Source of the DNA: Planctomycetota bacterium
GTDB lineage: Bacteria > Planctomycetota > SZUA-567 > H5-PLA8
NCBI GenBank assembly: GCA_045863855.1
Contig: BTVV01000006.1
Span: 9,216 to 73,215 of the forward strand
Length of the DNA: 64,000 nucleotides
Direction: 5' to 3'
Position numbers and translations under genes: made by a program. Below are positions 29,278 to 54,325 of the stretch, piece after piece; the stretch's first letter is position 1, and the number at the start of each line of letters is the position of its first letter. The notes under the pieces were generated by a model. That model was not told the DNA's origin, searched no databases, and saw nothing but the letters and a program-made list of their open reading frames with translations.

Positions 29278-31689
29278 TTACTCGAGCGGTGTCAACGTCA
29301 GGGTCGCCGGATCCAACCGCAGCACCATGACCTCCATGCGGCTGCAGTTTTTAATCCGCACGACTGCTTTCAGTTCGGGATCGTAGATCGGCGAGAAATC
29401 GCGGCCGGCCGCATTGGGGAACTGGAATTTGTCTCCCGTGCAAGGAGCCGTGAACCACTTTCGTTCGCCGAGCTTGTAGAAATACAGTTGCTCAGGAGCG
29501 GCCTTGTCCTGGGTACAGACCAGCAGCGCCGCGTCCAGTTCGGGGATGTACGTCGAATCGCCGTGCGCTTTGACGAGCGGCTTGCCTTGAAGCTGTTCCT
29601 TCGCCCACTGCTTTGCCTTGAAGTCGAAGCACCATACCTCGCCGGTGTCGCGCGCGAAGTAAACCAGCCGGTCGCGCTTCGTATCGTGGCATAGGTGCCC
29701 GTGCTCGTCGTGTTTGGGACCGCTTCCCGAAATCACCTCTTCCCACTTGCCGGCAGCCACATTGGCCTTGGCCAGCGTTCCCGTGCTGTACGCGTACAGG
29801 CCGTGCGGCGTGGAACAGAACGAGACTTGCGACGCGACGCCGTATTTGCCAGGGCAGACCCCGATGTTCGTGACGAACATGCGGTGCTTGAGGTCGTACA
29901 CGTCGCCGATGTAGGTAATCAGGCTGTTGCTCGCGATGTCGATCCCGTAGCTCTTGCGCGAATGCGTCGGCAGCAGCGACCAGCCTCCGGCGCTGATGCC
30001 TGGCGGGCCGGAGACCATTCCGTGCAGCCAGACGGGGTTGTAGTTGGGCGCGTCGGCCATGCCGACCCAGCGGTCCATTCCCACGTCGTACTCGATCACG
30101 TCGGCGCCGGGGTAGGTGCTGTGTCCGCCGCCCCAAGCGTAGGCGCGGTGGGTGCGCGGATCGTAAATGTTGCTGCCCCAATCGCGCCCCGGCGGCACCC
30201 AAGGCGGCTTGCGCAGCACCCAAGTGTTTGCCGGCTGTGCGGCGACCGCGGCCAGCCCGGCCTTCGGATCCTTCGAAGCCAGTTCCCCGGCCAGATACTC
30301 GTCGGGGAGTTTCGAACCCCAGCCCTTGCCTTTGCAGTGGTAATCGAGCTTCGGGTCGCGAGCCGCATCCGTGGGCGCCTTCGGCGCGGACGCCACATCC
30401 AGCTTTAGCGTGAAGACCGGCATCTTGTTGTTGCGCGATGGATTCGGGTATGCCGCCAGGACCACCAGGCCGCGCTTGGGATCGAAGTCCGCGCTGGCGT
30501 GAGCCGCTGGCGCGGGGAGATCCAGCCCCAGCTTCGTCCATTCCCCCTTGACCGTGTTGAAGGCCCAGGTGTCCTTCAGCGGCGTCCAGTTCCCGCCGTA
30601 TCCGCCCACCAGCAGCAGCGTCTTCTGGGCGGGTACGTAGACCAGCGCGTGGCCCGCTCGCGCCTGCGGCGAGACCGGCGTCTTCACCTCGCTCCAGGCA
30701 CGGCTGGCGCAATCGTATACCCACGTGTCGCCGATACAGCGCATCAGGTCGTCGCCGCCGAAAAGCACGATCTTCTTCGCGTCCGAGTCGTAGGCCAGGC
30801 CCGGCAGGATGCGCGCGCCGGGTTGCTTGCTCAGCGGCTGTTCGATCGCCTTCCAGCTCTTCGTGCTCTCCGAAAAGGTCCAGGTGCCGCAATGCGACGG
30901 ATACCAGCGCCGGGCGGAGGTCACGCCCGAATCGTCCGGCGTCAGCCGCCGCACGCGCTTGGCCGCTTCGTCAAAGATCCAGTCGCCCGGCTTCACCGGT
31001 TCCTTGTCCGCGCTCATCCGGCCCCACACCCCGCCCCCGCCGAACGAGACCGCCTCCTTGTTGTGCGCGTCGTAGCAGAGCGCGCCCCATAACGGGAGCC
31101 GCTTGCCCGCCTTGTTCGCCGCCTCGCCCACCGGCACCGGCAGCACCGCCTTCGCCGCCGGGTTGTACGCCTCGAAGTCCTCGCTCATCGAGAGCGGACT
31201 CAGGAGCGGCTCCCACACCACGCTTTCCGGATCGAGCAGCCAACCGGCGGTCGGTTGCTTTTTCGACGACCACCACCACTCCTGTTTGAGAAACAGAATC
31301 TTCTTCAGCCCCGGCAGGTAGACATAGCCCTTGGGCGAATCGAACGTGTCGGGCGTAGCGGGCGTCTTTCCCGGAGCAAACTCCCACTTGGGGTTCTCGA
31401 AAGAGATTTTGCGCAGGCCGGGGCCTTCCTTGGCTTCCGTTTCGGTCAGCATCGGCGCGACCACGCCGCAGTCACGGTCCGCGAGCCAGAGGAAAGCCGG
31501 TCCGGTGAGGCTCGGCCAGTTGCCCTTGGGCGGCGGATACGTCCCGTCGCCCAGCGGTGTCCAGACATTTACCTGCGGATTCCCGAGGTTCGGCTGCGCT
31601 TCGGAGGCGCGCACCAGCGCTGCGGCCAACACGGCACATGCGAGTAACAGAGCGATTCTTGGCATGGAGGCGCCTCTTTTTGTGTTCAT
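29278..31689 (-). CDS. Secreted Kelch-repeat beta-propeller protein (803 aa), paralog 1 of 3
   Basis: Signal peptide (IALLLACAVLAAALVRASEA). There are multiple Kelch-like blades (LFGGDD, LLLVGGYGGN, W/Y spacing). A shared paralog motif YAWGGGHSTY is present. The ATG overlaps the upstream gene stop (ATGA). Confidence 0.7.
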   Translation of the reverse strand: MNTKRGASMPRIALLLACAVLAAALVRASEAQPNLGNPQVNVWTPLGDGTYPPPKGNWPSLTGPAFLWLADRDCGVVAPMLTETEAKEGPGLRKISFENPKWEFAPGKTPATPDTFDSPKGYVYLPGLKKILFLKQEWWWSSKKQPTAGWLLDPESVVWEPLLSPLSMSEDFEAYNPAAKAVLPVPVGEAANKAGKRLPLWGALCYDAHNKEAVSFGGGGVWGRMSADKEPVKPGDWIFDEAAKRVRRLTPDDSGVTSARRWYPSHCGTWTFSESTKSWKAIEQPLSKQPGARILPGLAYDSDAKKIVLFGGDDLMRCIGDTWVYDCASRAWSEVKTPVSPQARAGHALVYVPAQKTLLLVGGYGGNWTPLKDTWAFNTVKGEWTKLGLDLPAPAAHASADFDPKRGLVVLAAYPNPSRNNKMPVFTLKLDVASAPKAPTDAARDPKLDYHCKGKGWGSKLPDEYLAGELASKDPKAGLAAVAAQPANTWVLRKPPWVPPGRDWGSNIYDPRTHRAYAWGGGHSTYPGADVIEYDVGMDRWVGMADAPNYNPVWLHGMVSGPPGISAGGWSLLPTHSRKSYGIDIASNSLITYIGDVYDLKHRMFVTNIGVCPGKYGVASQVSFCSTPHGLYAYSTGTLAKANVAAGKWEEVISGSGPKHDEHGHLCHDTKRDRLVYFARDTGEVWCFDFKAKQWAKEQLQGKPLVKAHGDSTYIPELDAALLVCTQDKAAPEQLYFYKLGERKWFTAPCTGDKFQFPNAAGRDFSPIYDPELKAVVRIKNCSRMEVMVLRLDPATLTLTPLE

Positions 31690-32828
31690 TTGGCCGTGCC
31701 GGGCAGGCTGCCAGGGGTGTCGGAAAGTTTGAACGCAACGGTTTTCCAGCCGCGGCCAACGATCAGGTGAACGTTGTTCACCGGGTCATAATCGTGGCGG
31801 TGGCGGATCATCTTTTCACCCACCAGCGCTTCGGCGTTCGAGCCTGTCTTGTACCAGCGGTTATCGCGGGGGCTGAAATAGAAGAAATCTCCTTCGGCGA
31901 AAACGACGAAGACGCGATTGCGCGGATCGTAGACCGCGTTGCAGTCGTGCGTGGCCGGTGCTTCGCCCTGCGTCTCGACGGTCGTCCACTGTCCGCTCTT
32001 GAGGTCATATTTGCAGAAGAGCTTGTTCTGCGGAGTTTCTTTAGGTCCGCGCGGGAGCGCCACCAGCGCTTCCTCGTCGGGGAAATACTCCAGGCCCGCA
32101 TAGGAGTACGGCAGACCTTTCGGAATCTTGCCCAGATCGCGCACCTCCTCGGTCTTCCAGTTCACCGCGCGAAAGGTCCCGGTCTGCGCGTAAAAGTAAA
32201 TCCAGTCGGGCTCCTTGGGCCAGACCGCGGAGCCGACATGATTCATCGCCAGCCCGGCCTTTTTGCTTACCGACCACTCGCGTTTGACCGGATCGAACGT
32301 CCACAGCCCCGAGCCTTTGTAGCATTCCTTGTAAACCGTTCCGTCGAGGTACGAGCCGCCGATTTCACCCACCAACTGAGTGCAGATCATCAGCGACTGG
32401 TTGGGCGGCACCACCAGTCCGTCGTACGTGTGGCGGCTGGAAGCGTAAATCTTGCCTTGGTATCTGAGACCGCCAAGGGGCTTCTTTTCCGCGTCGAAGA
32501 GCGCATTCTCGCGGGTGTACTCTTTCGGCGAGATGTCCGGACTGAGTTCGGACCATTGCAACGTGGCGGGATCGAATTCATGAACGCTGTTGGGAAACTT
32601 GCGCGTCGCGTGCCCGCCGCCGAAGGCGTAGAAGCGGTGGCGGTGCGGATCGTAGACGATGCCGCTGAAATCGAGCACATTGCCGTCGCCTTTGTAGCCC
32701 TCGCTGGCCAGCAGCGCGGACTTCTCGGCCAGACCGGCGAGCTTGGGATGGGGCGCGAACCGGGCCGCCGGTTCGCCCGCGTACGACGCCGCGGCAATGC
32801 TCAACAGCACGAACAGGATCGAACGCAT
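31686..32828 (-). CDS. Secreted Kelch-repeat beta-propeller protein (~380 aa), paralog 2 of 3
   Basis: Start MRSILFVLLSIAAASYAG (signal peptide) at 32828; the track start 32927 is an extension. Shared motif YAFGGGHATR. Confidence 0.7.
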   Translation of the reverse strand: MRSILFVLLSIAAASYAGEPAARFAPHPKLAGLAEKSALLASEGYKGDGNVLDFSGIVYDPHRHRFYAFGGGHATRKFPNSVHEFDPATLQWSELSPDISPKEYTRENALFDAEKKPLGGLRYQGKIYASSRHTYDGLVVPPNQSLMICTQLVGEIGGSYLDGTVYKECYKGSGLWTFDPVKREWSVSKKAGLAMNHVGSAVWPKEPDWIYFYAQTGTFRAVNWKTEEVRDLGKIPKGLPYSYAGLEYFPDEEALVALPRGPKETPQNKLFCKYDLKSGQWTTVETQGEAPATHDCNAVYDPRNRVFVVFAEGDFFYFSPRDNRWYKTGSNAEALVGEKMIRHRHDYDPVNNVHLIVGRGWKTVAFKLSDTPGSLPGTAK

Positions 32829-32839
32829 AGTGCATTTCC

Positions 32840-35179
32840 TCACTTGAGCGGCTGTGCGCCGAGCGTCGCCGCGTCCACCTTCAACACCTGGAGGCAGCCC
32901 TTCTTGAGCGCGCACAGCGTGCCCCAAACTAAATCGCGCTTCGCGTCGTACACGAGGCCCAGGTCCACACTGGAGCCGGCCTTGCCGCGATTCATGAATT
33001 CCGCGCCAGGCATCTTTGCGGCCACCCAGCGGTTCTTTTCACAGTCGTAGAAAGGAACCACGAGACCGCCTTCGCCCTGCAAGAGGAAACCGAGCATGAC
33101 CAGATCGCTCTTGGGCAGATAGACCGATTCGCGCGCAAACCGGCTTCCCTTGATCAGGTCCATGCCTTCGGGGTTAAGTTTCTTGACCTCGCCGCTCTTC
33201 AGGTCCGCGGACCAGACCTGACCGTGCGGGCCTTCCTTGCCGGTTGAGGTGGTGAAAAGCAGCCGGTCGCGCTTCGAGTCGTAGGTGACCGTCGAAGCGT
33301 CGCAGACCGTGTGAGGCAGCGGTTCGCCGGTGGTCGGGATTTCCTTCCAGACCTTCCCGCTTTCCAGCTTCCACAGGCCGTGCTTGGATTGGTTTTGCTT
33401 GGTCTGAGTCCAGCAGATCATGCCGCTGGGTGTCGAGACCAGGTAGTTGATGTACTTACTGACGGCGAAGGGCAGGTCTTCGAACTTTTCCGCGTGCGGC
33501 CACGTCCGTGCGATCGGATCGTAAAAAAGCGTCATCCGAGTCTTAATGTATACGACGCGCTTGGTCGTCGGGTCGTACTCGTAGGCTTGGTAATTATGAT
33601 TACCCCAAGGCGCCCCGTTGAACCCCCACATCCCGGGGCCGTTCAGGTCGTAGTTGAATTCCAGCGCGAACTGCGGCCGGCACGCGATGCTCCAGCGCCC
33701 GGTGGCGATATCGTAGTGCGCCATGTCGTTGCCGAAGTACGAACTGTGCCCGCCGCCCATGTGGAGGATCTGGTCGCGATCGGTGTCCAGCGCCACGGTG
33801 CTCCACCCGCCGCCTTGCCGGTTCTCCGGCCAGCGCGGGCACTCCAGCGCCGTCCAGGTGTTGGGCGTAAGGTTTTTCAGCACGGCCGCCGTGGCGGAAA
33901 CGTCCGGCTCGGGGACATCCTTCGTGTACCACTCGGGATCGAACGAGCCGCTGCGGAACTCGAGCGTCCCCGGCGGCACTCCGAATTTGGAGGTGCCTTC
34001 GGAGTCGTGCGCGGAGGCGTCAAGCCGGCAGAGCCAAGCGCTGTGCGCACTGCCTTTTTGGGTGCCGGGACCGATCCATAACACCGTATCGTCATCGGAG
34101 ACTGCGGCTACTGCGGCGCTATCGGCTCCGCCTCGGCCCGTGTAGTCGGCCGGCCCGTTCTGCTCGAAGCGGCGAATCAGCTTCCAGTCGTTTGCCACGA
34201 CATCGTAGTTCCATACCTCGAAAGGGAGTGGCTTGTATAGGGTGGCGCAATACGCAGTGGACGAGGTGTAGCCCTTGCCCCCCAGCAGAACGATCTTCCC
34301 GCTCTTCGGCAGACGCAGCAGCGCGTGCCCGAATCGCGGCGCAGGATTAATCGGCGGCTTCCGCTCTTCCCATGTGCGTGTCGCACAGTCGTAGACCCAG
34401 GTGTCCGCATAAAGCTGGTCGAGGCGGTCGCCGCCAAAGAGGACGATCTTTTTCGTGGCCGGGTCGAAGACCATCGGCGCGAGCGCGCGCGGCGGCGGTT
34501 CGACGGCAAGCTCCAGCTTGCGCCAATCGTTCTTCTCGGTCCCGTACACCCACGTGCCCGGCGCGCCGTTCTCCGTCGCCACGCCGCAGCCGCCGAAAAG
34601 CAGGATCTCCTTGTTCGCTTCGTCCGCGCACAGTGCCGACCAACTCAGGCTTTCGCGGTACGAATTGACGGCGGGCATCGGGCCGACCGGCGCTTTCAAG
34701 TCCTCCCATGTACGCGCCTGCGGATCGTAGCGCAGCACGCGCCCGCAGATCAGCGCGTAGACCTTTCCGTCCCACGGTGCTCGCGTGTAGTGGTACCACA
34801 GGCACATATGCCGCCGGTTCGGACGTTGCAGGCCTTCGTCGTCGCCCAAGCCGAAGAAGGGGCTCTTGAAGCCCACGTCCTTGACGTTGCCGGTCTCGCC
34901 GCCGCGACCCTCGGCGCCTTTGGGAAGTTCGTTGCGCCACTGCCTGTCCGCCGGATCGAAGCTCATCACGTCGTACGGACGTTCGCCGGTGAAGTGGTGG
35001 CTGATGGCGCCGCAGAAATACACGAAGCGTTTCAGCTCCGGTGACCAGACCAGGCCTGGAGAAAAACCGGGGCCGAGTCCGTTTTCGGTCACTTTGGTCC
35101 ACTCGTTAGCCGCGGGTTCGCCGCCCATGAGCGGCATGGCGAGGCCGGCCAGCAGGAGCAACAGAGGCAGGTGCTTCAT
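32840..35179 (-). CDS. Secreted Kelch-repeat beta-propeller protein (779 aa), paralog 3 of 3
   Basis: Signal peptide MKHLPLLLLLAGLAMPLMG. There are multiple Kelch-like blades. Shared motif ILHMGGGHSSYFG. Confidence 0.7.
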   Translation of the reverse strand: MKHLPLLLLLAGLAMPLMGGEPAANEWTKVTENGLGPGFSPGLVWSPELKRFVYFCGAISHHFTGERPYDVMSFDPADRQWRNELPKGAEGRGGETGNVKDVGFKSPFFGLGDDEGLQRPNRRHMCLWYHYTRAPWDGKVYALICGRVLRYDPQARTWEDLKAPVGPMPAVNSYRESLSWSALCADEANKEILLFGGCGVATENGAPGTWVYGTEKNDWRKLELAVEPPPRALAPMVFDPATKKIVLFGGDRLDQLYADTWVYDCATRTWEERKPPINPAPRFGHALLRLPKSGKIVLLGGKGYTSSTAYCATLYKPLPFEVWNYDVVANDWKLIRRFEQNGPADYTGRGGADSAAVAAVSDDDTVLWIGPGTQKGSAHSAWLCRLDASAHDSEGTSKFGVPPGTLEFRSGSFDPEWYTKDVPEPDVSATAAVLKNLTPNTWTALECPRWPENRQGGGWSTVALDTDRDQILHMGGGHSSYFGNDMAHYDIATGRWSIACRPQFALEFNYDLNGPGMWGFNGAPWGNHNYQAYEYDPTTKRVVYIKTRMTLFYDPIARTWPHAEKFEDLPFAVSKYINYLVSTPSGMICWTQTKQNQSKHGLWKLESGKVWKEIPTTGEPLPHTVCDASTVTYDSKRDRLLFTTSTGKEGPHGQVWSADLKSGEVKKLNPEGMDLIKGSRFARESVYLPKSDLVMLGFLLQGEGGLVVPFYDCEKNRWVAAKMPGAEFMNRGKAGSSVDLGLVYDAKRDLVWGTLCALKKGCLQVLKVDAATLGAQPLK

Positions 35180-35255: not shown

Positions 35256-36395
35256 TCACGCGCCGACGTCCCCGCCGCGCCGCAACGCTTCTTCCGCCGC
35301 TTGCGGGCGAATCAGGCTTACGCGCACGTCGATGCGGCAGGCCGGACCGTCAGGCTGAGCGCGCCGTTCGCGCAAGCGGCTCAACGCCAGCCGCGCCATT
35401 TCCGACGGTTTCCAGACCAGCGTCGCCGGAACATCACCGCCCAGAAACGCCGGCGCCAGCGTCTCGCGGTACTCGTACGCATTGGCCCAGCCGACCAACT
35501 CCACGTCCTTGCCCACTTTAAAGCCCGCCTGCCGGATCCCATCTGCCGCGCCCAGCGTCATCGCCACCCAAGGGCAGATCAGCGCCGTCGGCCGATCCGC
35601 GGCGCTCAGCAGCGCCTGGACCTGACGCGCCGCGCCTACCGCATCTTCGTTCGAAGCGATGATCGCCAGATGCCGGGGATCGAAATCCAGCCCCGCGTCG
35701 TTCAAGCCTGCGCGCGCGCCCGCGAAGCGTTCGCGCCAGTGTGCAAAGCCCCGCGTCGGACCCACCCAGCCGATCCGCGTGTGGCCCTGTGCCACCGCAT
35801 ACGCCGCGCCCAACCGCACGCCGTCCACGTTGTCTTGGATCACCATGTCCACGCCCGGCTCGGTCGAATGCGCATCGACCACAACAAACGGCAGCCCGGA
35901 TTGCTGCGCCGCGCGGATCAGAGGAAGTTCACTCCCGTCCAACAGCACCGCTTGCACGCGGGCTTCGGCCAATTCACGGAAGACTTCCGCCGCCGGACGC
36001 CCTTTACAGCCCACCGCCAGCAAGGTTCCGCTAGCCCCCACATGCGCTTGCTGAAACGCGTTCAGGATCTGAGCGTGTGTCGAATCCCAGCGTTCGTGAG
36101 GCCCCGCCTGCGCCAGTACGTACGCCACCGTCTGCACAGGGGAATGGGCGCTTGAGCGCGGGCGCACGCGGTATCCTTTAGAGGGCACCGGCTCCAACAA
36201 GCCTTCCGCCACCAACCGCGCCAGCGAGCGTCGCACCGTCACCCGGCTTACCTTGTAGCGCTGGCCCAACTCGCGCTCCGCCGGTAAGTACGCATCCGGA
36301 CCCCACTGCACGCCGCCGACGAAGGCTCGTAGCGTCTCCGCAAGGTCGTCCGTCAGGTTTCGGCGAGCGGTTAAGAGCTTGGTCTGCATCGGCAT
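35256..36395 (-). CDS. GntR-family HTH regulator fused to a LacI/PBP-type ligand-binding domain (paralog of 23567..24715)
   Basis: LPAERELGQRYKVSRVTVRRSLARLVAEGLL HTH, then a PBP fold. It lies 76 bp upstream of, and co-oriented with, the Kelch/ABC gene string. Confidence 0.75.
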   Translation of the reverse strand: MPMQTKLLTARRNLTDDLAETLRAFVGGVQWGPDAYLPAERELGQRYKVSRVTVRRSLARLVAEGLLEPVPSKGYRVRPRSSAHSPVQTVAYVLAQAGPHERWDSTHAQILNAFQQAHVGASGTLLAVGCKGRPAAEVFRELAEARVQAVLLDGSELPLIRAAQQSGLPFVVVDAHSTEPGVDMVIQDNVDGVRLGAAYAVAQGHTRIGWVGPTRGFAHWRERFAGARAGLNDAGLDFDPRHLAIIASNEDAVGAARQVQALLSAADRPTALICPWVAMTLGAADGIRQAGFKVGKDVELVGWANAYEYRETLAPAFLGGDVPATLVWKPSEMARLALSRLRERRAQPDGPACRIDVRVSLIRPQAAEEALRRGGDVGA

Positions 36396-38169: not shown

Positions 38170-41100
38170 CTACTTCTCGTCTTCTTCCGCATCTTCGGAG
38201 AGCGCGCGGTAATACTGATCGACGAGCGTGCGGTATTCCTTCGGCGCCTGCTCGTCCTCTTCGGCGCGGATCTCGCGCGCTTTCAGCAAGCGCTCCACCC
38301 GGCCGTGCAGACCGCTACTGACTTGATCGAGCGCCTTCTTGGCGCGCTTGAGCGGCTCGCCGCCGCGTTCGGTTTCGGGCGTTTCTTGCGGCGGCCCGGG
38401 TTGCTTCGAAGCTTGCGCTTGCGCCTGCTGCAGTTCCTTCATCGCCTGCTGAAGCTGGCCCAACTCCGGTGCGCCGGGCTCCAGCCGCTCCAGTTTCGGT
38501 TCGAGCTTCTTCAGATCTTGCTCCAGCTTCTGTGCGGCTTCTTTGGCTTCCTTGGGCTGACCGGGTTCTTGGCCGGGCTCCGACTGCGGCTGGCCTTCCT
38601 TCGGATCCTGCGCCAGCTTCTTGGCCTGTTCGGCCGCTTGGCGCGCTTCCTGCTCCAGCGCCTGGAGCTTGGAAAGCGCATCGCCCGTCGCCTCGGCCTG
38701 GAACTGTTCGAGCTTCTGCTCGATCTTTTTCACCTTCTCGGCCAACTCCTGGCCCTGTTTGCCGGCTTGTTCCGGAGTCGGCGTGGGGCGGTCCTGGCGT
38801 TCGGCGGCCTTCTTGGGATCGCCGATCTGCTCCATCCCTTGCGCCAGCGCTTCCATGTTCTGCGGGAGTTTCTCTTCGGCCGAGACGTCCTTGGCTTCCT
38901 GCGCCACCTGTGCGGCCGCGGGATTGGCTTCGCGCGCCAGCGCTTCCAAACCTTCGAGTTCCTTTTCGAGCCGCTTGGCGAGGCGCGCGGCTTGCTGCTG
39001 CTTGGCGGCGGCTTCGTCGCGCTTCTCGGCCGCTTCGCCGGCCAGCGGCTTTTCAGCGGCATCCTTGGGCAATTCGCCCGCCGTCGCGGCGGCTTGTTCC
39101 TGTTGCTCGCGCGTCTGCTTGGCCAGTTCCTGCGCGGCCTTGGCTTTTGCTTCCAGCGACTTCCCGGCGGCGCGTTCCAGCTCGCTCACCGCTCGCTTCA
39201 GCGCTTTCTCGGCATTCTCGGCCGCGGGTTTGGCGTTCTCGGTATCCTGTCCCGCCAGCTTGGCCGCGGCTTCGCGCGCCTGCTCGGCCGCCTGTTGCAA
39301 CTGCTGGCTCGGACGTTCGCCGTTGCCTTGATTCTTCAGCGCTTCCAGATTCTTGGTCTGCTGCGCGAGCGACTCCGCGGCGTCGGCCACCTTCTGTTCT
39401 TGCTCGGCCAATTGGATCGGATCGCGCTTTTCGGCAAGGCCCTGGCCGACCTTTTCCTGCTGCTGAGTCAGTTGTTTCGTCTGCTCCAGCGCTTCGGCCA
39501 GCTTCGCCATGTCCGCGGCCTGCGTCTTATTCAGCGCATCCTGCACCGACCTCGCCATGGCATCCATGGCGCGAGCGGCCTTGCGCTGATCGTGCTCCGC
39601 CTGCTCCGCCGCGCCTTGCTTCAACGCCTGTTCGGCCTTCTCCGCCGATTCGCGGCCCGGCGCGCCCGCGGCGGCCTGTTGCTGCGCTTCCTTTAAGGAC
39701 TCCGCGCCTTGCAGTCCTTCCCGTTTCGCGCGATCCGCCGCCTTTTGAAGCCGATCGGCCAGATCCTTCAAGTCCTGGCCGACTTCACCCTGCTTGCGCG
39801 CCATATGGCTCATCTGGGCCTGTGTCTGCTGCGATTCGCCTTGCGCGCCCGGTTGCTGGCCGGGTTGAGGCTGCTGGCCAGGTTGTGGCTGCTGTCCAGG
39901 TTGCGGTTGCTGTCCAGGCTGTGGTTGCTGACCGGGCTGTGGTTGCTGACCGGGCTGGGGTTGCTGACCGGGCTGGGGCTGTTGTCCTGGTTGAGGTTGC
40001 TGTCCGGGCTGGGGTTGTTCCCCCTGCTTCGGATCCTGCTTCTGCCCCGGCTGCGGCTGAGTGTCGCGCTGCATGTCCTGATTGGCCTGCGCGAGTTGCT
40101 GTTGGCGCTGGGCAAGTTCCTCCGCGTCGCGCTGCAGGTTCGCCATCTCTTTGCGAAGTTGCTGCTCCATCGCGTCGCGCGCAGCCTTCTTGGCTTGCTC
40201 CAGATTGCGTCCGGCCTGTTCGGCGTTCTGCTTGGCGTCCTGAGGCTTATTCTTTTCCAGATCCTTCTGCGCTTGCTCCAGCTTCTGCCCGGCCTCTTGA
40301 AGCTGATCGGCACTAGGCTGCAATTCTGGATTGCGGCGGGCCAGTTCGCGGAACTTTTCTTCGCGCGCCTTGGCTTCGTCGGCCAGCTTCTTGAGCGCGT
40401 CCTGCTGCTTGCGCGTCAGTTCGCGCTGCTCTTTCTCGCGCTTCTTTTCTTCTTCGGTGGGCGGCTGGCCCAGGTTGCGCGGCGGGGGCTGGTCGAGCTG
40501 CATTTTTTCCAGCCGCTCGATCTCGCGTTCGATCTCCTTCTCGCGCTCCAGCATCGGCGGCAGTTCGGCCATCTCTTCGCGCGCCTGCTGCTGGTCCTGC
40601 TGCTCCTGGCTCTGCTTTTTCTTGCGGTTCTTGCGCGACTGCTGGTTCATCGCAGACTTGAAGCGCGGGTCGCCTTCCTTGTCGGAAAGCAGCAACCGGC
40701 GCGTCTCGGAAAGATGGCGTAACGACTCCATCTCCGGCGGCACGGCCGGTTCGGGGCGGTTTCCGGTCAGTTCGTTCCCGGCCTCGGTCATCTTTTCCGA
40801 GGCCTGCTCCATATGCTTCAGTTCCTTCTCGCCGATCGGATTCGGCTGCGGCTGCGGGCCGGGCGGATGGCCGTCTGTGGCGCGCGGTTCTTCCTCGGCC
40901 GGCGCTTCGGCTTTGGCCAGTTCTTCTTTGATCGTGGCGGTCAGTTCGTCGAGCTTCTGCTTCAAGTCCAATTGCGCCTGAGCCGTCTTCAGTGCATCCT
41001 TCTTTTCCTGCTCGGCGCGCTTCTGGGCCGCTTCGGGATCGGGCTGCTTCGCGCCGGGCTCATCCAGCGTATTGCGCAGCCGCGCCATCGCGAACGTCTC

Positions 41101-42774
41101 TTTCAGCAGCTTCTTCTGCACTTCGATCAGCTTATCGAGCTGCCGCACCGACTCCGGCGTGGGCTGGTTTTGCGGCATGTCGGGGTTTTGCGGCGCGTCG
41201 TATTCTTCTTCGTCGTACACGGTCAGGAAATGAATATCGCTCTTGGCCACCTTAGGGCCGTTCAGCGTATCGTTGTCCAGCGCATAGGCGTAATAGGCGA
41301 GCACCTCGCCGCCCTTCAGCCCAAGGCTGCCCATGTCCCACTTGAGCTTCCCCTCGGCCAGCGTCGGAGCCGGTTCGAAGCGCCGCACCATCTTCTTCTC
41401 TTCTTCCATGCCCAAGCTGTGGTAAATGCCCAGTTCGAGCAACCCCACGTCGTCGGTCCCTTCGATCTCCAGCTCGATGGTCTGCTCGCGGTGGATCATC
41501 AGGTCGCGCGCGGGCTTCTTGATCTTCACGCGCGGCTTCTGGTCTTCGAGCGCCTGGATGCGGTAGCTCGCGGCGCTGCGGTTCGAGCGACCTTTCGGAT
41601 CCTCGACGCGGAGCTGGTAACGGTCGTCGCCGGTGACGGTGAAACTCAATTCGCCCTTGCGGCCCTCGATCTTCGCGAATTCCGCGCTGCGCCCCGATTC
41701 GAAGGTGGCTTCCGCGCCGGCCAAATGCGTATTCGCTTCGATCCGCACCGTCACCTGCGTGCCTTTTAAGGCACGCACTTCGCCCATGCCCGCGGGCAGG
41801 ACTTCGGGCGCCTTGCCGGTGTACGCGGGGTATTCGAGTTTCACGTCGAACTCGTCGATCTGCGGTTCCTGGTACACGTTCAGCGTGAACGGTTCGCTTT
41901 CGGCGTCGCCCGCCTTCACCATGCAGGTGACCGGTTCCAGCAGGCGGCGCAGCGTCACGTGGTACGCGCCGTCCTCGCCGCGTTCCATCAGGCGATGCTC
42001 CCACGGCGCTTCCGGATCGTCGCCCGTGCGCACCAGCAGCGTCGCTTCGTCGGGCCGGCGTCCCGATACTTCGACCGTGACCGGGACGCTCGTCTCGACG
42101 GGGAACTCCCCGCCGGCCGGTTCGATGCGTTCGATCAGCGTCAACGTCGGAGCGGGCACCGCGGCGGTGGGCATCAGAAAACGCTGGAATGTGGCGCTGA
42201 AGAGGCGCGGGTTGATCGCTCCGTAAAGCCCTACGCCCGCGGCCACGACGAAAGCGGCCAGCAACGCCCAGCCGGCCGCCCGCCAGCGGACCGTGCGCCG
42301 GAAATCCAGCGGTTCGGCGCGGCGCTGCGCTTGTTCCAGCAGCGCGCCGACCAGCGCGGGACTTGAGGTGGCTTCCGCGAGCTTCGCGTCACGCCCGAAC
42401 TCCAGCGCCGTCGAAAGCTGCGCTTCCAGTTCGGGGTAAGCGCCTTCCACTTCCCGCGCCACATGAACCGTGCCGCCCAGCTTTTTCCAGGGACGCACCA
42501 CCACCCACGCCAGCACCGCGCCCACGCCGCCCAGCGTCAGCGCCAGCCAGAAGAGCCGCGAACCCACAGAGAGCTTGAAGAGGACGTCGATCAGACTGAA
42601 GCCGAGGAACGCCGCCGCAAAGACCGCCAAGCCCAGCAAGGCGCCGGTCGCCAGGAACTTCATGCGATGACGCCGCCGCACGCCCTCCACGCGCCCCTCG
42701 ATTTGCGCCCACGCATCCCGTGCGCGACCGGTGAGCTGCGGTTTGACGGGTGGCGGTTGAGTGGTCGTCGACAT
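38170..42774 (-). CDS. Giant membrane-anchored protein (1534 aa): N-terminal 2-TM anchor, beta-rich region (~aa 200-520), then ~900 aa of E/K/A/Q-rich predicted coiled coil including (QPQPGQ)9, and a C-terminal conserved-looking tail (KEYRTLVDQYYRALSED)
   Basis: ATG 42774 is preceded by AAGGAG at 7-nt spacing. Both TM helices are evident. The gene is co-oriented with and 125 bp downstream of a BatA_N+vWA gene, and may correspond to the uncharacterised large TM proteins found next to Bat/MoxR-type genes in PVC bacteria. Confidence 0.7.
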   Translation of the reverse strand: MSTTTQPPPVKPQLTGRARDAWAQIEGRVEGVRRRHRMKFLATGALLGLAVFAAAFLGFSLIDVLFKLSVGSRLFWLALTLGGVGAVLAWVVVRPWKKLGGTVHVAREVEGAYPELEAQLSTALEFGRDAKLAEATSSPALVGALLEQAQRRAEPLDFRRTVRWRAAGWALLAAFVVAAGVGLYGAINPRLFSATFQRFLMPTAAVPAPTLTLIERIEPAGGEFPVETSVPVTVEVSGRRPDEATLLVRTGDDPEAPWEHRLMERGEDGAYHVTLRRLLEPVTCMVKAGDAESEPFTLNVYQEPQIDEFDVKLEYPAYTGKAPEVLPAGMGEVRALKGTQVTVRIEANTHLAGAEATFESGRSAEFAKIEGRKGELSFTVTGDDRYQLRVEDPKGRSNRSAASYRIQALEDQKPRVKIKKPARDLMIHREQTIELEIEGTDDVGLLELGIYHSLGMEEEKKMVRRFEPAPTLAEGKLKWDMGSLGLKGGEVLAYYAYALDNDTLNGPKVAKSDIHFLTVYDEEEYDAPQNPDMPQNQPTPESVRQLDKLIEVQKKLLKETFAMARLRNTLDEPGAKQPDPEAAQKRAEQEKKDALKTAQAQLDLKQKLDELTATIKEELAKAEAPAEEEPRATDGHPPGPQPQPNPIGEKELKHMEQASEKMTEAGNELTGNRPEPAVPPEMESLRHLSETRRLLLSDKEGDPRFKSAMNQQSRKNRKKKQSQEQQDQQQAREEMAELPPMLEREKEIEREIERLEKMQLDQPPPRNLGQPPTEEEKKREKEQRELTRKQQDALKKLADEAKAREEKFRELARRNPELQPSADQLQEAGQKLEQAQKDLEKNKPQDAKQNAEQAGRNLEQAKKAARDAMEQQLRKEMANLQRDAEELAQRQQQLAQANQDMQRDTQPQPGQKQDPKQGEQPQPGQQPQPGQQPQPGQQPQPGQQPQPGQQPQPGQQPQPGQQPQPGQQPQPGQQPGAQGESQQTQAQMSHMARKQGEVGQDLKDLADRLQKAADRAKREGLQGAESLKEAQQQAAAGAPGRESAEKAEQALKQGAAEQAEHDQRKAARAMDAMARSVQDALNKTQAADMAKLAEALEQTKQLTQQQEKVGQGLAEKRDPIQLAEQEQKVADAAESLAQQTKNLEALKNQGNGERPSQQLQQAAEQAREAAAKLAGQDTENAKPAAENAEKALKRAVSELERAAGKSLEAKAKAAQELAKQTREQQEQAAATAGELPKDAAEKPLAGEAAEKRDEAAAKQQQAARLAKRLEKELEGLEALAREANPAAAQVAQEAKDVSAEEKLPQNMEALAQGMEQIGDPKKAAERQDRPTPTPEQAGKQGQELAEKVKKIEQKLEQFQAEATGDALSKLQALEQEARQAAEQAKKLAQDPKEGQPQSEPGQEPGQPKEAKEAAQKLEQDLKKLEPKLERLEPGAPELGQLQQAMKELQQAQAQASKQPGPPQETPETERGGEPLKRAKKALDQVSSGLHGRVERLLKAREIRAEEDEQAPKEYRTLVDQYYRALSEDAEEDEK
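39848..40017. repeat. About 9.5 copies of a near-perfect 18-bp tandem repeat inside the giant gene, encoding (QPQPGQ)n
   Basis: Units (c[ac]gg[ct]tg[tgac]ggttgctg[ta]c) are directly visible at 39848-40017. The translated track shows QPQPGQ x9. Confidence 0.85.
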
Positions 42775-42899
42775 GCCGTTACTCCTTCGCGGGCATCGGT
42801 CTTAGGCACCGCAGAGAACGCTGAGCGCGCAGAGATTCTCGAGGGCTCATGCGCCAAGGTACCTCAGCGCGTTCCGCGTTCGCGGCGGTGAACTCAAGC

Positions 42900-45098
42900 T
42901 TAGTCTCCCCAGAAGTCACGCAACGCTACTTCCAACAGCAGGCAGGCCAGCGCGGCCACCAGCAAGTAGCGCCAATCGGGTGCTTGAGCTTTCAGTTCCT
43001 CGTCGGCCTGGAGGGCCAGCTTCGGGCCCTCATCCGGATCTTCTTCCTTAAGGTTGGACGCATAAAGGGCTTGTATGGCGGCTAAATCCTCGGCTTTCAG
43101 TTCACTTTCCGCCGGGTCCAGATTGACCGCCCACTGCGCTTGTTCAGCCAATTGCCCGGGCTGATAGGTGGCCGTGTAAAGACCTACCGTGTCTGTAGTT
43201 AGATGGTCGGATCCGGTCAAATCCAGGGTGTCGTTGTGCGGCGCGGGACGGGCCAGGCGAACGGTCGTCTGCGGTTGGAGGGCCAAGCCCGCCAAAGTCA
43301 GGTCTTCGCCCACCGTCAGTTGCCGCTGCGCCCCTTGCTCGATTCCAGACAGATGCTTTACGATCTGGTGCATCAGCGGGACGAAAACGGTCCGCTTGGG
43401 CAGGTCGGTATCCTTCTCCGGACGCGGCAGGAAGCTGAACATCAGCACGCGCCCCAAGCCGAAGGGGCGTTCGACGGTCATGGGACTCCCGTCGCTGAAC
43501 GTCGCCAGCACCTGCCCCGGTGGGCGCTCGCCGGCCGACAAGTCCTTCGGGTCGGGCTTGAAGTGACGCAGGAACTTGGGCCGCCGCAGTTCCTGCTCGA
43601 TTTCGCCCTTAAACGGTGCAAAGAGCGGGTGGTCCACCGCGAACGTATCCAGCGAACTGAAGCGCGCTTCTACCAGATTGCCTTCGAAGCGTTCTCCCGG
43701 CCGCGCGGGCAGCAGCCCCTTACCTTCTTTCCAAAACGGTCCGTTGTAGAAGCCCGTGGCCAGCGTGCCGTCGCTGCGGCCCAGGAAGAGCACCAGATTC
43801 AGCCCGGCTTGAACCGCTTGCTCCAAGGTGGCCAGCGTTGCGGCCGGCAATTCGGTGACGCCGACCAGGAAGAGCACGTCGGCGCCTTTCAGCACGGCCG
43901 GAGTCAGATCCCGCGCGGCGACGGTATCGACGCGTACGGCTCCGGGGGGAACCTCCTTGGGCGCTTCGCCTCCGCGCGGGCGCGGATCCAGCGCCATGCG
44001 CACGTAGTACGACTCGTCGAGCCACGCGCCGGATTCGCGCAACCGGTCTTCGGCGATCACCGCCCGGATACTGTCGCGCAGATGCAGTGCGAAGAAACGC
44101 CGGTCGTCGTCGGGCAGCACGTCGCGCCCGTCGATCTCCACCCGCCCGTGCACCGGGCCTGCTTTGGGGAATAGCGCGGTGAGTTCGATGTCGCGCGCAT
44201 CCCGCGGACCCAGCCCCACAGTCCGCTGCGCGAGAATCTTGTCGCCGCTCAACAGCCGCACTGCCAACGCCGAGGCTTCTCCGTCGCCGTGGTTGCTGAG
44301 GCGCACGGCGAACCGGACCGGCCGGCCCTCCAACCATACGTCGCTCTTGGCCCGTACTTCGTCGAGGCTCAAGTTGTTCAGTTTGCCTGGGACTTTGCCG
44401 TCCGCGTGCGGCGGCCGGATCTCGATCTGGACCGGACGCGGCATGGTGACCGCGCGCTGGCCGGTTTCGGCCAGCGCCGTACGGTCCATCTGATTGAGCT
44501 GCAAGTCGCTGATCAGAAGCACCCGCCGCCGCGGCGCGGCGCTGTCGGCGAGCAAATCGAGCGCCGTCTGCAGCGCTTGAGCCGGATCGCCGCGCACGAA
44601 ACCGGGACGCGTGCGTTTGGCCAGCGCTTCCTTGGTGGCCTCGAAATTTCGCGCCAGTTCCACCTCCGGCCGTCCCGGATCGCCCGTCAGTACAAGCCCC
44701 AAGCGTTCCAGGTTCTTCGCGGATGCCGCGACCAGCGCCTGATCGACCGCCATCTGCCAGCGCGTGGTCGAACCGTCCTGCGCGGCCATGCTGGGCGAGT
44801 CGTCCAGCACCAGCACCAAGTCCTCGCGCAATTCGCCTGAAGGACCGGCCAGCACGGCGCCCGCCCGGTACGGCCTCGCAAAGGCCAGTGCGATCAGGAT
44901 GCAGGCCGCGCAGCGCAACAGCAGCAGCAGCAAATCGCGCAGCCGCAAGCGGCGCGTCTCGCGCAGGACCGATTCGCGCAAGAAGCGCAGCGACGAGAAG
45001 ACCAGCGTGCGCTTGCGAAGCTTGAAGATGAGGTGAATCACCACCGGGAGGGCGAAGGTGGCGGTGCCGGCTAGGAAGAGCGCGTTCAAGAAGCCCAT
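42900..45098 (-). CDS. BatA-like protein: aerotolerance-regulator N-terminal double-TM domain (BatA_N) plus von Willebrand factor A domain and a long C-terminal extension
   Basis: N-terminus FLNALFLAGTATFALPVVIHLIFKLRKRTLVFSSLRFL (BatA_N pattern), vWA MIDAS VLVLDDSPSM, and a C-terminal TM. Confidence 0.75.
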   Translation of the reverse strand: MGFLNALFLAGTATFALPVVIHLIFKLRKRTLVFSSLRFLRESVLRETRRLRLRDLLLLLLRCAACILIALAFARPYRAGAVLAGPSGELREDLVLVLDDSPSMAAQDGSTTRWQMAVDQALVAASAKNLERLGLVLTGDPGRPEVELARNFEATKEALAKRTRPGFVRGDPAQALQTALDLLADSAAPRRRVLLISDLQLNQMDRTALAETGQRAVTMPRPVQIEIRPPHADGKVPGKLNNLSLDEVRAKSDVWLEGRPVRFAVRLSNHGDGEASALAVRLLSGDKILAQRTVGLGPRDARDIELTALFPKAGPVHGRVEIDGRDVLPDDDRRFFALHLRDSIRAVIAEDRLRESGAWLDESYYVRMALDPRPRGGEAPKEVPPGAVRVDTVAARDLTPAVLKGADVLFLVGVTELPAATLATLEQAVQAGLNLVLFLGRSDGTLATGFYNGPFWKEGKGLLPARPGERFEGNLVEARFSSLDTFAVDHPLFAPFKGEIEQELRRPKFLRHFKPDPKDLSAGERPPGQVLATFSDGSPMTVERPFGLGRVLMFSFLPRPEKDTDLPKRTVFVPLMHQIVKHLSGIEQGAQRQLTVGEDLTLAGLALQPQTTVRLARPAPHNDTLDLTGSDHLTTDTVGLYTATYQPGQLAEQAQWAVNLDPAESELKAEDLAAIQALYASNLKEEDPDEGPKLALQADEELKAQAPDWRYLLVAALACLLLEVALRDFWGD

Positions 45099-45201: not shown

Positions 45202-45627
45202 CTACGCGTCGCGGTCTTCGAGCGGCATCGCCTGCGGCTCGATGTTGCCGATATCGCGCCCTTCGGCGGCGGCCTTCTTCTTCTCGTTCCAGCGCTTGAC
45301 CCAGTTCTCCCAGCTCCGCCCGGCCGCCGGATCGACGCCTGTGAAGGCGACGCCCGCGATCTGCTTGTAGGGAATGGTCTGCTGATCGTCCTGGCCGCGC
45401 GGAATGAACTCGATATAGGGCTCCGGGGCGCCCGCTTCCCGATTGAACACAAATCCCACGCGCTCCTCGCCGCCCACGAGGATCAGCGTCACGTCGCCGC
45501 GGTAGTCGAAGGCTTCTTCGAGCACCAGGCGCTTATCGGCCTCGGTCTCGATCTTCGGCGTCCACTTTTCGAGCGTCTTGCGGCTCTTGATCTCTTCGTG
45601 GATCGTGCTGTGCTTTTCCTGCGGCAT
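45202..45627 (-). CDS. Hypothetical protein (141 aa) immediately downstream of hpnH
   Basis: An ORF co-oriented with hpnH and 80 bp downstream of it; it has a charged N-terminus. No recognisable motif. Confidence 0.4.
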   Translation of the reverse strand: MPQEKHSTIHEEIKSRKTLEKWTPKIETEADKRLVLEEAFDYRGDVTLILVGGEERVGFVFNREAGAPEPYIEFIPRGQDDQQTIPYKQIAGVAFTGVDPAAGRSWENWVKRWNEKKKAAAEGRDIGNIEPQAMPLEDRDA

Positions 45628-45707: not shown

Positions 45708-46829
45708 TCAGTCCGCGGCGGCGGCGCTGATCGGTTCCGGCTGTTCGAGCTTGCGTGGCTTGTTGGGCCGGTTCGCCGGCACGTGCATCGGCTTCTCGTA
45801 CGTCCCGACACTCTTGCCCGATAGCACGAACCATGCCGTGCGCGCAAAGCCGCGCAGGCTGCCGAAGGTGTAATCCACGCTGGTCGGTTCGTAGCCGCAG
45901 TGAACCATGCAGTCCTTGCACTTCTCGTTTCCGCTGCGCCGCCCGTAAGCGTCCCAGTCGGTCGTCTCCATCAGCTCCTTGAAGGTCTTGGTGTAGCCTT
46001 CCTGAAGCAAATAGCAGGGCTTCTGCCAGCCGAACATGTTGTACGTCACGTTGCCCCAAGGCGTGCACTCAAGGTCGATGTAGCCCATCAGGAAGTCCAG
46101 GAAGAGCGGCGACTGGTTGAAGACCCAGGAACGCTTCTTGTTCTGGAACATCTTACGGAACATCTCGTTGCTCTTCTGGCGCTTGAGGAAATGTTCCTGG
46201 TCGGGCGCCTTCTGGTAGCTGTAGCCGGGCGAGACCATCATGCCCTCGACGCCCAGTTCCATCATCTCGTCGAAGAAGCGGCGGTACTTCTCGGGTTCGG
46301 CGCCGTCGAAGAGCGTCGTGTTCGTCGTCACGCGGAAGCCGCGCTTGATCGCCTCGCGAATCGCTTCCGTGGCCTTCGCGTAGGTGCCTTCGCGGCAGAC
46401 CGCGAAGTCGTGCTCGTCGCGCGCGCCGTCCATATGAATGCTGAACGTGAGGTACTTGCTCGGCGTAAAGACGCCCTGCTCGAGCCGCTCTTTCAGCAGG
46501 ATCGCGTTGGTGCAGAGGTAGATGTACTTCTTGCGCTCGACCAGCCCCTTCACGATCTCGCCGATCTGCGAATGCATCAACGGCTCGCCGCCGGGGATGC
46601 TGACCATCGGCGTGTCGCACTCGTCGACGGCTTTGAAGCATTGCTCGGGCGAGAGTTCCTTGCGCAGAATGTGGCCGGGATACTGGATCTTCCCGCAGCC
46701 CGCGCAAGCCAGATTGCACCGGAACAACGGCTCCAGCATCAGCACCAACGGGTAGCGCTTGATGCCTTTAAGCTTCTGCTTGATGACGTAAGACGCCACC
46801 GTAGCCATCTGCGAAACAGGAACGCCCAT
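45708..46829 (-). CDS. hpnH: Hopanoid-biosynthesis-associated radical SAM protein HpnH (adenosylhopane synthase)
   Basis: N-terminal YPLVLMLEPLFRCNLACAGCGKI (CxxxCxxC radical-SAM cluster in the HpnH-typical context), ~373 aa. Confidence 0.78.
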   Translation of the reverse strand: MGVPVSQMATVASYVIKQKLKGIKRYPLVLMLEPLFRCNLACAGCGKIQYPGHILRKELSPEQCFKAVDECDTPMVSIPGGEPLMHSQIGEIVKGLVERKKYIYLCTNAILLKERLEQGVFTPSKYLTFSIHMDGARDEHDFAVCREGTYAKATEAIREAIKRGFRVTTNTTLFDGAEPEKYRRFFDEMMELGVEGMMVSPGYSYQKAPDQEHFLKRQKSNEMFRKMFQNKKRSWVFNQSPLFLDFLMGYIDLECTPWGNVTYNMFGWQKPCYLLQEGYTKTFKELMETTDWDAYGRRSGNEKCKDCMVHCGYEPTSVDYTFGSLRGFARTAWFVLSGKSVGTYEKPMHVPANRPNKPRKLEQPEPISAAAAD

Positions 46830-51768: not shown

Positions 51769-51912
51769 GAACCTCGAGTCGTTCACAGGAATTCAGGCGG
51801 CGGCGTCGCGCCTGCTTTCTGACCTCTCGCATTTCGGCGCTCCATTAGAATCCGAAGCCATGAACCACCCGCCGCGACGCTGCGTTGATTGGGGTACAGG
51901 AGCGGGCCGGCG

Positions 51913-53748: not shown

Positions 53749-53849
53749 CACCATTCGGCGCACGTTCACGACGGTCTTCAAAATCGAGAATAGGGGCGCC
53801 CGCCGTATGGCGATTGCCACCGCGCCCCGCTCTCGGTATAGAAACGTCA

Positions 53850-54325
53850 TGCAACGCTCGATTCGGACGGTTCTTCCTTTGGCGCTTTTGGCGCTCGTGC
53901 TTGCCGGTTGCTTCGGCGGTGGCGAACGCACCGATACCGCTCGCGCGGCAGCCGTGTCCTTCAGCGGCTACGCCTGGGACGGGCAGGCCAGCGGCTATAC
54001 CTTCAAGACGACGACCGATCAGGCCGCGCAGGCCGGCTTGTCGGCGCTGCGTAAGCACGGCTTTATGGTCGAGCCGTACGACGCCAAGCGTTCGGGCGGC
54101 GCTCCGAAGCTGCGTGGGAAGACCAAGGCCAACCTCGACGCCGAGATCAACCTCCAGCTCGTTTCGCCCAGCACCGTGGACTGCAAGGTGAAGATCGGCT
54201 CGCTCGGCGACCGTACGGCGTCCGAGACCGTTCTCGAAAGCATGCGCGTTCAGCTCGAACGCTCGGAGCGTTCCGCGCCGCCTCCCGCGCCGGCCGCGAA
54301 GCCCGCCGAGAAGAAAGCGCCATGA
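53850..54325 (+). CDS. Lipoprotein (lipobox LAGC)
   Basis: MQRSIRTVLPLALLALVLAGCFGG. Its stop overlaps the cysteine synthase start (ATGA). Confidence 0.55.

Follow-up and report, generated by a model that had tools for sequence, protein, structure and literature searches.

A BatA-type gene and a DUF4175-family giant gene in a planctomycete as a reduced version of a MoxR-linked envelope cluster

The stretch of Planctomycetota contig BTVV01000006.1 analysed here (assembly GCA_045863855.1; 64,000 nt, hereafter the window) carries two adjacent genes on its reverse strand, one for a BatA-type protein and one for a giant of 1534 amino acids (aa). Judged by homology and gene content, the pair is a reduced version of a MoxR-linked multi-gene envelope cluster, two of whose six genes are present. 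The giant is, on its Pfam score, a member of the DUF4175 family. This family is known, catalogued and very large yet uncharacterised, and the pair is not a new kind of system. A preliminary description of this DNA had assigned the pair to a Bat- and MoxR-associated set of envelope genes, an assignment borne out by homologous genes that share one cluster in many genomes. The identity, architecture and topology of the two proteins can be given with high confidence, the topology being deduced from the positive-inside rule and from an experimentally tested BatA homologue. It is proposed, tentatively, that the pair belongs to a scaffold anchored in the inner membrane and extending into the periplasm.

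The DUF4175 family and its gene neighbourhoods

The giant scores 53.6 bits against the Pfam family DUF4175 (PF13779; cut-off 27.3), one of the families that the preliminary description had suggested. The best stretch aligns aa 287-466 with profile positions 175-335, and the isolated immunoglobulin-like (Ig) region scores 48 bits. No NCBIfam model matches the giant at E<=0.01, including TIGR02302, a family of alphaproteobacterial low-complexity membrane proteins that we take to be related to DUF4175. Membership in the SMC, adhesin, TolA, TonB or BatD families was rejected; BatD had been raised earlier, and none of the five has Pfam or NCBIfam support even at E<=1. An exhaustive phmmer search with aa 1-568 against 1.84 billion cluster representatives (50%-identity clusters) returned 10,881 clusters at E<=1e-3 and 6,510 at E<=1e-10. 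Among the best-scoring matches listed, lengths range from fragments to 1784 aa, with apparently complete proteins from ~600 aa up. A locus search with a narrower alignment mostly returned the close clade of the window.

In the canonical cluster, the gene order is (MoxR)-DUF58-BatA-VWA/GATase1_like (~750 aa)-DUF4175-DUF4159, often continued by genes for cytochrome c554-like and thioredoxin/HEAT proteins. The cluster occurs in Pirellulales and in further lineages, some of them outside Planctomycetota; examples are found in Mariniblastus (locus L002), Blastopirellula (L003/4), L018, L019, L021 and L023. MoxR is present in L002, L003 and L021 and absent in L018 and L023; its status in L019 was not determinable. 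Partial forms comprise DUF4175-DUF4159-c554-thioredoxin/HEAT (L022) and DUF4159 near DUF4175 (L020). Across L002, L003 and L018-L023, DUF4159 lies within a few genes of DUF4175, usually directly 3'. The DUF4159 proteins have signal peptides, the VWA/GATase1_like proteins are doubly anchored like BatA, and DUF58 has no transmembrane (TM) helix. The canonical system is accordingly drawn, from these predictions, as cytoplasmic MoxR and DUF58 plus four or more components that would face the periplasm.

Two further features of DUF4159 were recorded. Between its genes (L002, L003, L021, L022) and the DUF4175 stop codon there is often an overlap of 4 nt, a hint at translational coupling, and four of the five DUF4159 proteins examined (all but that of L018) share a C-terminal CCCCGGNE motif. 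No such association was seen at the DUF4175 paralogue L016 or the Mucilaginibacter homologue L017. L016 (3427-13252), from a genome that also carries L009, encodes a 1099-aa DUF4175-like paralogue with 27% identity. Its neighbours are a DsbH-like thioredoxin/DsbD_N protein, an uncharacterised 607-aa protein and a DUF6288 protein, a context that is possibly redox-linked.

BatA lies directly 5' of the giant in the window and at L007, L001, L005 and L009. The order is BatA-giant-VWA/GATase1_like-HEAT at L011 and L024, and giant-VWA/GATase1_like-HEAT at L012-L014. Since the flanks of the BatA-giant pair differ among genomes, the adjacency itself is conserved, and both open reading frames (ORFs) are intact in at least 6 genomes. 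MoxR, DUF58 and DUF4159 are absent from the retrieved flanks (up to 10 kb per side) of the loci in the window's clade. In the window, Pfam scans of its ~45 ORFs and tblastn found no MoxR, DUF58, DUF4159 or HEAT gene, and hhalign found no VWA/GATase1_like or HEAT partner among the unannotated ORFs. These results agree with the earlier view of a partial, decoupled system lacking MoxR and DUF58 in the window, and extend it to the retrieved loci of the clade, which consists of uncultured Planctomycetota. The preliminary description had also allowed for a giant without homologues near BatA-like genes, or for one that belongs to an SMC-like or adhesin family. Homologues are instead adjacent to BatA in the clade and one gene away in canonical clusters, and no such Pfam match to the giant was obtained.

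Coding status of the gene pair

The positions and lengths of both ORFs, the gap between them and the strong Shine-Dalgarno sequence of the giant were all confirmed as first described (Table 1). No terminator-like hairpin was found in the gap, so the two genes are likely co-transcribed. GMV79385.1 (AMXMBFR7_05690), a protein from a Planctomycetota metagenome-assembled genome (MAG), has the same sequence as the BatA-type protein (100% identity); the exact sequence of the giant had no entry in the protein collection looked up. Ratios of nonsynonymous to synonymous substitution (dN/dS) were computed against L007 (MAG H5_PLA8), whose DNA is 93% identical. The ratio is 0.053 for the BatA gene; within the giant, the Ig domains (0.026) and the spacer that follows them (0.028) have lower values than the TM and cytoplasmic part (0.067), and the C-terminal tail is unchanged. 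Because the values lie at 0.03-0.07, both are, by this measure, genuine coding genes.

At L001 (10001-14496; MAG GCA_027493525.1), gene calling splits the giant into two overlapping genes, which encode 702 and 827 aa. According to tblastn, the frame changes near aa 590-670, through an assembly frameshift or a real disruption.

Architecture of the DUF4175-family giant

The preliminary description gave the giant two N-terminal TM helices, but hydropathy identifies three (aa 40-62, 73-95 and 165-187), the third of which is also seen in an AlphaFold2 (AF2) model. The predicted cytoplasmic parts are the N-terminal segment (aa 1-39) and a conserved helical domain of 70 aa (aa 96-164). Lysine and arginine (K/R) residues number 9 before TM1, 1 in the loop 63-72, 10 in the loop 96-164 and 2 after TM3. 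This distribution predicts a cytoplasmic N-terminus and 70-aa loop, with all of the protein beyond aa 188 in the periplasm. The AF2 model covers aa 1-568 and was built from a 33-sequence alignment, with a mean predicted local distance difference test (pLDDT) score of 86.9. In it, a four-helix cytoplasmic segment (aa 102-161) lies between a pair of long TM helices and TM3, and three beta-sandwiches of the Ig/fibronectin type III (FN3) kind follow. The ~300-aa beta-rich domain noted earlier thus resolves into three modules between aa 212 and 520. Residues P304, P316, Y318, D411, P414 and D441-D442 are invariant in the Ig region, and the whole giant contains a single cysteine. A sequence profile compared with the PDB found no solved relative.

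The spacer of ~970 aa separates the Ig domains from the C-terminus. It was analysed over aa 541-1505, where Q accounts for 16%, A for 15%, E for 14%, K for 10%, L for 9% and P for 7.6%. Charged residues make up 34%, LIVMFWY just 13.6%, and the longest proline-free run among the 73 prolines is 79 aa. The E/K/A/Q-rich low complexity of the preliminary description is therefore upheld, but its coiled coil is not. In only 3% of 28-aa spacer windows are at least six of the eight a/d positions hydrophobic, and Fourier analysis of the spacer gave no 3.5-residue spectral peak above shuffled controls. A continuous canonical coiled coil was rejected on the number of prolines and the lack of a coherent heptad, and neither analysis supports the 100-nm rod once envisaged. 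A weak helix-like signal (3.35-3.7 residues) is confined to aa 976-1505, and opposite-charge pairs at i/i+4 are enriched (0.093 versus 0.056 +/- 0.006). Pro/Gly breaks divide the spacer into charged, helix-prone stretches 35-79 aa long, which are possibly single-alpha-helix-like. Its only matches in the PDB, designed helical bundles and ApoA-IV, reflect composition.

The spacer still aligns with 52% identity in a comparison in which the folded domains share 61%. Together with its dN/dS of 0.028, this indicates that the spacer is under strong purifying selection. A Q/P/G-rich hinge occurs at a matching position in several orthologues. The tandem repeat inside it has exactly one unit fewer in L007 than in the window; on this comparison, the copy number of (QPQPGQ)n is variable within an otherwise strongly conserved gene.

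The conserved-looking tail of the preliminary description proved to be a family-wide motif, which in the giant is followed by an acidic end. The consensus from aligned tails is P-x-E-[YF]-x-x-L-[IV]-x-x-Y-[FY]-[RK]-x-L-S. When this consensus is relaxed to a degenerate pattern, matches within the last 45 aa are obtained for 98 of the 182 DUF4175 family proteins collected; many of the other proteins are truncated metagenomic fragments. The central tyrosine is invariant in the 80 matches long enough to tabulate, and a DUF4175 subfamily of 600-620 aa retains the half-motif ADYFNLLSG. In the giant, Y1514, L1517, V1518, Y1521, Y1522 and L1525 are spaced 3,1,3,1,3, which would put the hydrophobic residues on one helix face and is consistent with an amphipathic helix.

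The stretch from the third Ig domain to the motif is ~70 aa long in the short subfamily and 278-1248 aa otherwise (median ~600). The spacer measures ~400 aa in Pirellulales and ~900-1100 aa throughout the window's clade, where the total length is 1430-1657 aa. The comparison of orthologues that had been called for thus gives conserved ends and a middle of ~70 to ~1250 aa. An AF2 model of a complete short homologue (P0015, 619 aa) reproduced the N-terminal module and left the tail helix undocked, with pLDDT <50.

Architecture of the BatA-type protein

The BatA-type identity proposed earlier is well supported. BatA_N scores 63.7 bits against PF07584 (cut-off 25.9) and 71 bits against TIGR02226 (cut-off 23), and a von Willebrand factor A (VWA) domain is recognised by the VWA_2 match over aa 94-198 (37.8 bits; cut-off 27). 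With 11 K/R, the loop between TM1 and TM2 (aa 26-55) is predicted to be cytoplasmic, which leaves a body of 630 aa in the periplasm. In the BatA-type homologue BB0173, experimental topology shows that the VWA domain faces the periplasm (PMC5700661). Of the metal-ion-dependent adhesion site (MIDAS) of the preliminary description, residues D99-x-S101-x-S103 and D198 are kept in at least 60-90% of 58 BatA homologues, in whose alignment no conserved MIDAS threonine was identified.

The other 500 aa of the protein include a weak CARDB match (aa 256-326). Homologues are annotated as CARDB, ThuA, ABC_transp_aux or DUF4350. BatA aa 52-661 aligns with the ~750-785-aa VWA+GATase1_like operon partners (hhalign probability 99.5%, E 3.8e-23, 562 columns). 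The predicted layout is TM-TM-VWA-Ig-GATase1-like-TM, with a membrane anchor at either end. Orthologues of this protein fall into ~55 clusters in metagenomes.

A second BatA-like paralogue (AMXMBFR7_05800) lies 7 kb from the pair on the opposite strand, an arrangement kept in L007. BatA_N is matched in it at 27.8 bits, its MIDAS is degenerate (LLDNGPS), and a TM helix lies at its C-terminus. This BatA_N protein was considered as the GATase1_like partner and rejected as such, since hhalign aligns it with the BatA family over aa 1-344 (probability 98%) and thereby identifies it as a BatA paralogue. A DUF3568 lipoprotein-like gene overlaps its 3' end.

Table 1. Features of the BatA-giant gene pair and other features of the window
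Feature	Position in window	Strand	Size or residues	Evidence or remarks
BatA-type gene	42900..45098	-	732 aa	
BatA_N double-TM domain	44868..45098	-	aa 1-77	PF07584, TIGR02226, hydropathy, charge counts
VWA domain	44463..44819	-	aa 94-212	VWA_2 match, conservation
CARDB-like Ig, then GATase1-like/ThuA-like domain	43299..44333	-	~aa 256-326, then ~aa 340-600	
C-terminal TM anchor of BatA	42906..42977	-	aa 708-731	Hydropathy; W-R and TM conserved
Intergenic spacer BatA/giant	42775..42899	-	125 bp	
Shine-Dalgarno sequence of the giant	42787-42782	-	AAGGAG	7 nt 5' of the ATG
DUF4175-family giant gene	38170..42774	-	1534 aa	PF13779 match; orthologues 1430-1657 aa
Membrane module of the giant	42214..42774	-	aa 1-187	Hydropathy, AF2, K/R counts, conserved columns
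Three Ig/FN3-like beta-sandwiches, predicted periplasmic	41215..42141	-	aa 212-301, 306-409, 415-520	AF2
Q/A/E/K-rich spacer	38248..41154	-	aa 541-1509, ~970 aa	Composition, periodicity, dN/dS
18-bp tandem repeat encoding (QPQPGQ)n	39851-40017	-	9.3 copies	Inside Q/P/G-rich hinge aa 895-996
Conserved C-terminal motif, A-P-K-E-Y-R-T-L-V-D-Q-Y-Y-R-A-L-S-E-D	38191..38247	-	aa 1510-1528	APKEYRTLVDQYYRALSED
Second BatA-like paralogue	51889-53748	+	611-619 aa	Probable start 51913
DUF3568 lipoprotein-like gene	53723-54325	+		
ORF between HpnH and BatA	45202-45627	-	141 aa	GC content at third codon positions (GC3) 0.87
Terminator-like hairpin, GC-rich	45678-45659			Near HpnH
HpnH adenosyl-hopene transferase	45708-46829	-		TIGR03470, 529.7 bits
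Three consecutive large Kelch-repeat proteins	29278-35179	-	803, ~413, 779 aa	
GntR-HTH/periplasmic-binding-domain regulator	35256-36395			
Second such regulator	23567-24715			
Fused SecD-SecF protein	6488-9889	-	1133 aa	

Other features of the window

Upstream of BatA lies a gene for HpnH, an enzyme of hopanoid side-chain biosynthesis, with a terminator-like hairpin nearby. The 141-aa ORF between HpnH and BatA has no Pfam match; it is conserved in L007 and was not found 5' of BatA in more distant relatives. Elsewhere, the three Kelch-repeat genes lie downstream of a regulator that combines a GntR-type helix-turn-helix (HTH) with a periplasmic-binding domain, and a second regulator of this kind and a fused SecD-SecF gene are also present. 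No Rfam or tRNA features were found in the window.

Comparison with known systems

The giant resembles DUF4175 (PF13779) proteins in its N-terminal TM helices, in a long Q/G/E-rich region predicted outside the membrane and in the conserved C-terminal motif. It differs in that its spacer is near the long end of the family (median ~600 aa) and in that the adjacent DUF4159 partner is missing. In the Pirellulales clusters (Mariniblastus fucicola, CP042912, and Blastopirellula), BatA and DUF4175 are homologous to the pair and have the same order and orientation, with 25-27% identity in the N-terminal module. However, DUF4175 measures 930-948 aa in those clusters, and only two of the six genes, directly adjacent to one another, occur here.

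The BatA-type protein shares the double-TM BatA_N domain and a VWA domain carrying MIDAS residues with the Bat operon of Bacteroides and with BB0173. Classical Bat operons also encode BatB-E, including tetratricopeptide-repeat proteins and BatD, whereas DUF4175 does not figure in the descriptions consulted, and their function is unresolved (PMC3557215). The Rhizobium leguminosarum genes RL3499-RL3502, likened here by description alone, encode MoxR, DUF58 and two membrane proteins (double-TM, VWA-type); MoxR and DUF58 are the components that the window lacks.

As a functional analogy only, TolA and TonB have an N-terminal inner-membrane anchor, a long low-complexity helical or proline-rich spacer that crosses the periplasm and a C-terminal docking element. 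Unlike them, the giant has three TM helices, three Ig domains and a motif of ~19 aa instead of a folded C-terminal domain. The giant has no sequence similarity or Pfam match to TolA or TonB, and genes of the ExbB/TolQ type were not found in the window. In the searched literature, experiments on a protein labelled DUF4175 are confined to AdvA of Acinetobacter baumannii, a short, essential division protein that carries this label over an N-terminal two-TM region (PMC7481262). AdvA, likened by description, probably shares just this TM-region match with the giant.

Proposed role and alternative explanations

We favour, tentatively and with somewhat less than even confidence, a scaffold that is anchored in the inner membrane and reaches into the periplasm. 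The Ig domains of the giant would sit close to the membrane, while the DUF4175 spacer would carry the C-terminal docking motif outward to a distal partner; candidates are the outer membrane, the cell wall and other proteins of the periplasm. The VWA domain of BatA, through a MIDAS-type site, could supply a metal-dependent protein-protein contact, and BatA and the giant are presumed to interact physically. In canonical clusters, the small cytoplasmic domain of the giant would be the obvious point of action for MoxR and DUF58. Bat- and MoxR-linked clusters have been tied to aerotolerance in Bacteroides and to stress tolerance in Francisella. Envelope-integrity and morphology phenotypes of the MoxR-linked RL3499 cluster of Rhizobium, as cited in PMC3893208, are counted in support of the scaffold. 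So are the family membership and architecture of the two proteins, their predicted topology, the kept adjacency of their genes, the cluster partners predicted to face the periplasm, the conserved ends on either side of a variable middle, and a dN/dS of the spacer close to that of the Ig domains.

Several observations weigh against such a scaffold, and confidence that the spacer acts as a tether is low. Without heptad regularity and with many prolines, the spacer may be flexible and not a rigid ruler. In the full-length short homologue P0015, AF2 docked the C-terminal motif nowhere. A DUF4159 neighbour, found at seven of nine distinct loci outside the clade, is absent from the window. For DUF4175 or DUF4159 proteins of this kind, the searched literature yielded no functional studies. 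Furthermore, deletion of Bat genes in Leptospira, where "Bat function remains elusive", had no morphology or growth phenotype (PMC3557215).

The same low-complexity sequence could serve no docking partner at all and form a largely disordered, hydrated polyampholyte brush, which would fill or buffer the periplasm in the manner of a hydrogel or an entropic spacer. The abundance of charged residues, glutamine and proline, the (QPQPGQ)n repeat, the missing heptad and the low AF2 confidence beyond the Ig domains would suit a brush. However, a dN/dS of 0.03 and an identity so near that of the folded domains point to sequence-specific constraint, which is unusual for pure disorder. The conservation of the C-terminal motif in diverse family proteins argues for a specific binding event, and the enriched i/i+4 salt-bridge pairs favour stable helices. 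A brush is unlikely, although it is the most credible of the alternatives. A role in a periplasmic redox or oxidative-damage system, in which DUF4175 would scaffold thiol-redox partners as in the original aerotolerance idea, is less probable again. The thioredoxin-domain/HEAT and cytochrome c554-like proteins that follow canonical clusters, the CCCCGG motif at the end of DUF4159 and the DsbH-like thioredoxin/DsbD_N neighbour of the L016 paralogue are in line with it. So is the partial rescue of a Bat mutant phenotype by reductants, as reviewed in PMC3557215. Nevertheless, redox genes are missing from the flanks of the pair, both in the window and in its closest relatives, the giant has only one cysteine, and the Leptospira Bat proteins showed no oxidative-stress role (PMC3557215).

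Two other explanations are very improbable, to about the same degree. The long helical low-complexity region, with its profile matches to helical bundles and ApoA-IV, might recall a cytoplasmic SMC-like or cytoskeletal coiled coil, or a secreted or tail-anchored surface adhesin; yet those matches reflect composition only, heptad regularity is absent, and no SMC, adhesin or secretion domain was matched in the giant. In addition, the C-terminal 1350 aa are extracytoplasmic by the positive-inside rule, the Ig/FN3 modules are typical of extracytoplasmic proteins, and the protein is anchored by N-terminal TM helices and has neither a C-terminal sorting signal nor a cleavable signal peptide. Alternatively, a MoxR operon in decay might have left the pair behind, or the two genes might be neighbours that share no function. 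MoxR, DUF58 and DUF4159 are indeed missing from the window, and the giant of L001 is split by a frameshift. The low dN/dS of both genes, the ORFs that stay intact and adjacent across genomes while the flanks differ, and the number of BatA orthologue clusters in metagenomes count against this explanation; the L001 frameshift is confined to a single MAG assembly.

The periplasm of planctomycetes is unusually wide and variable. A bolder version of the scaffold proposal makes the spacer a genetically encoded distance-setter or tether of this compartment and the pair autonomous without MoxR and DUF58. The lineage-specific length of the spacer would then fix how far the motif reaches from the inner membrane. 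This version is doubtful, and is regarded as slightly less probable than the redox role.

Significance

The Bat operon was described in 1999, and no mechanism has since been assigned to DUF4175 or to the Bat- and MoxR-associated membrane proteins, all of which are very widespread. The useful additions made here are a domain map of the family, its family-wide C-terminal motif, the combination of conserved ends with a spacer of lineage-specific length, and the constraint on the spacer sequence. As a natural minimal version with two genes, the pair could make the system easier to dissect genetically in a relative that can be cultivated. Should the spacer indeed set or bridge distances in the envelope, this would be relevant to how the enlarged periplasm of Planctomycetota is built.

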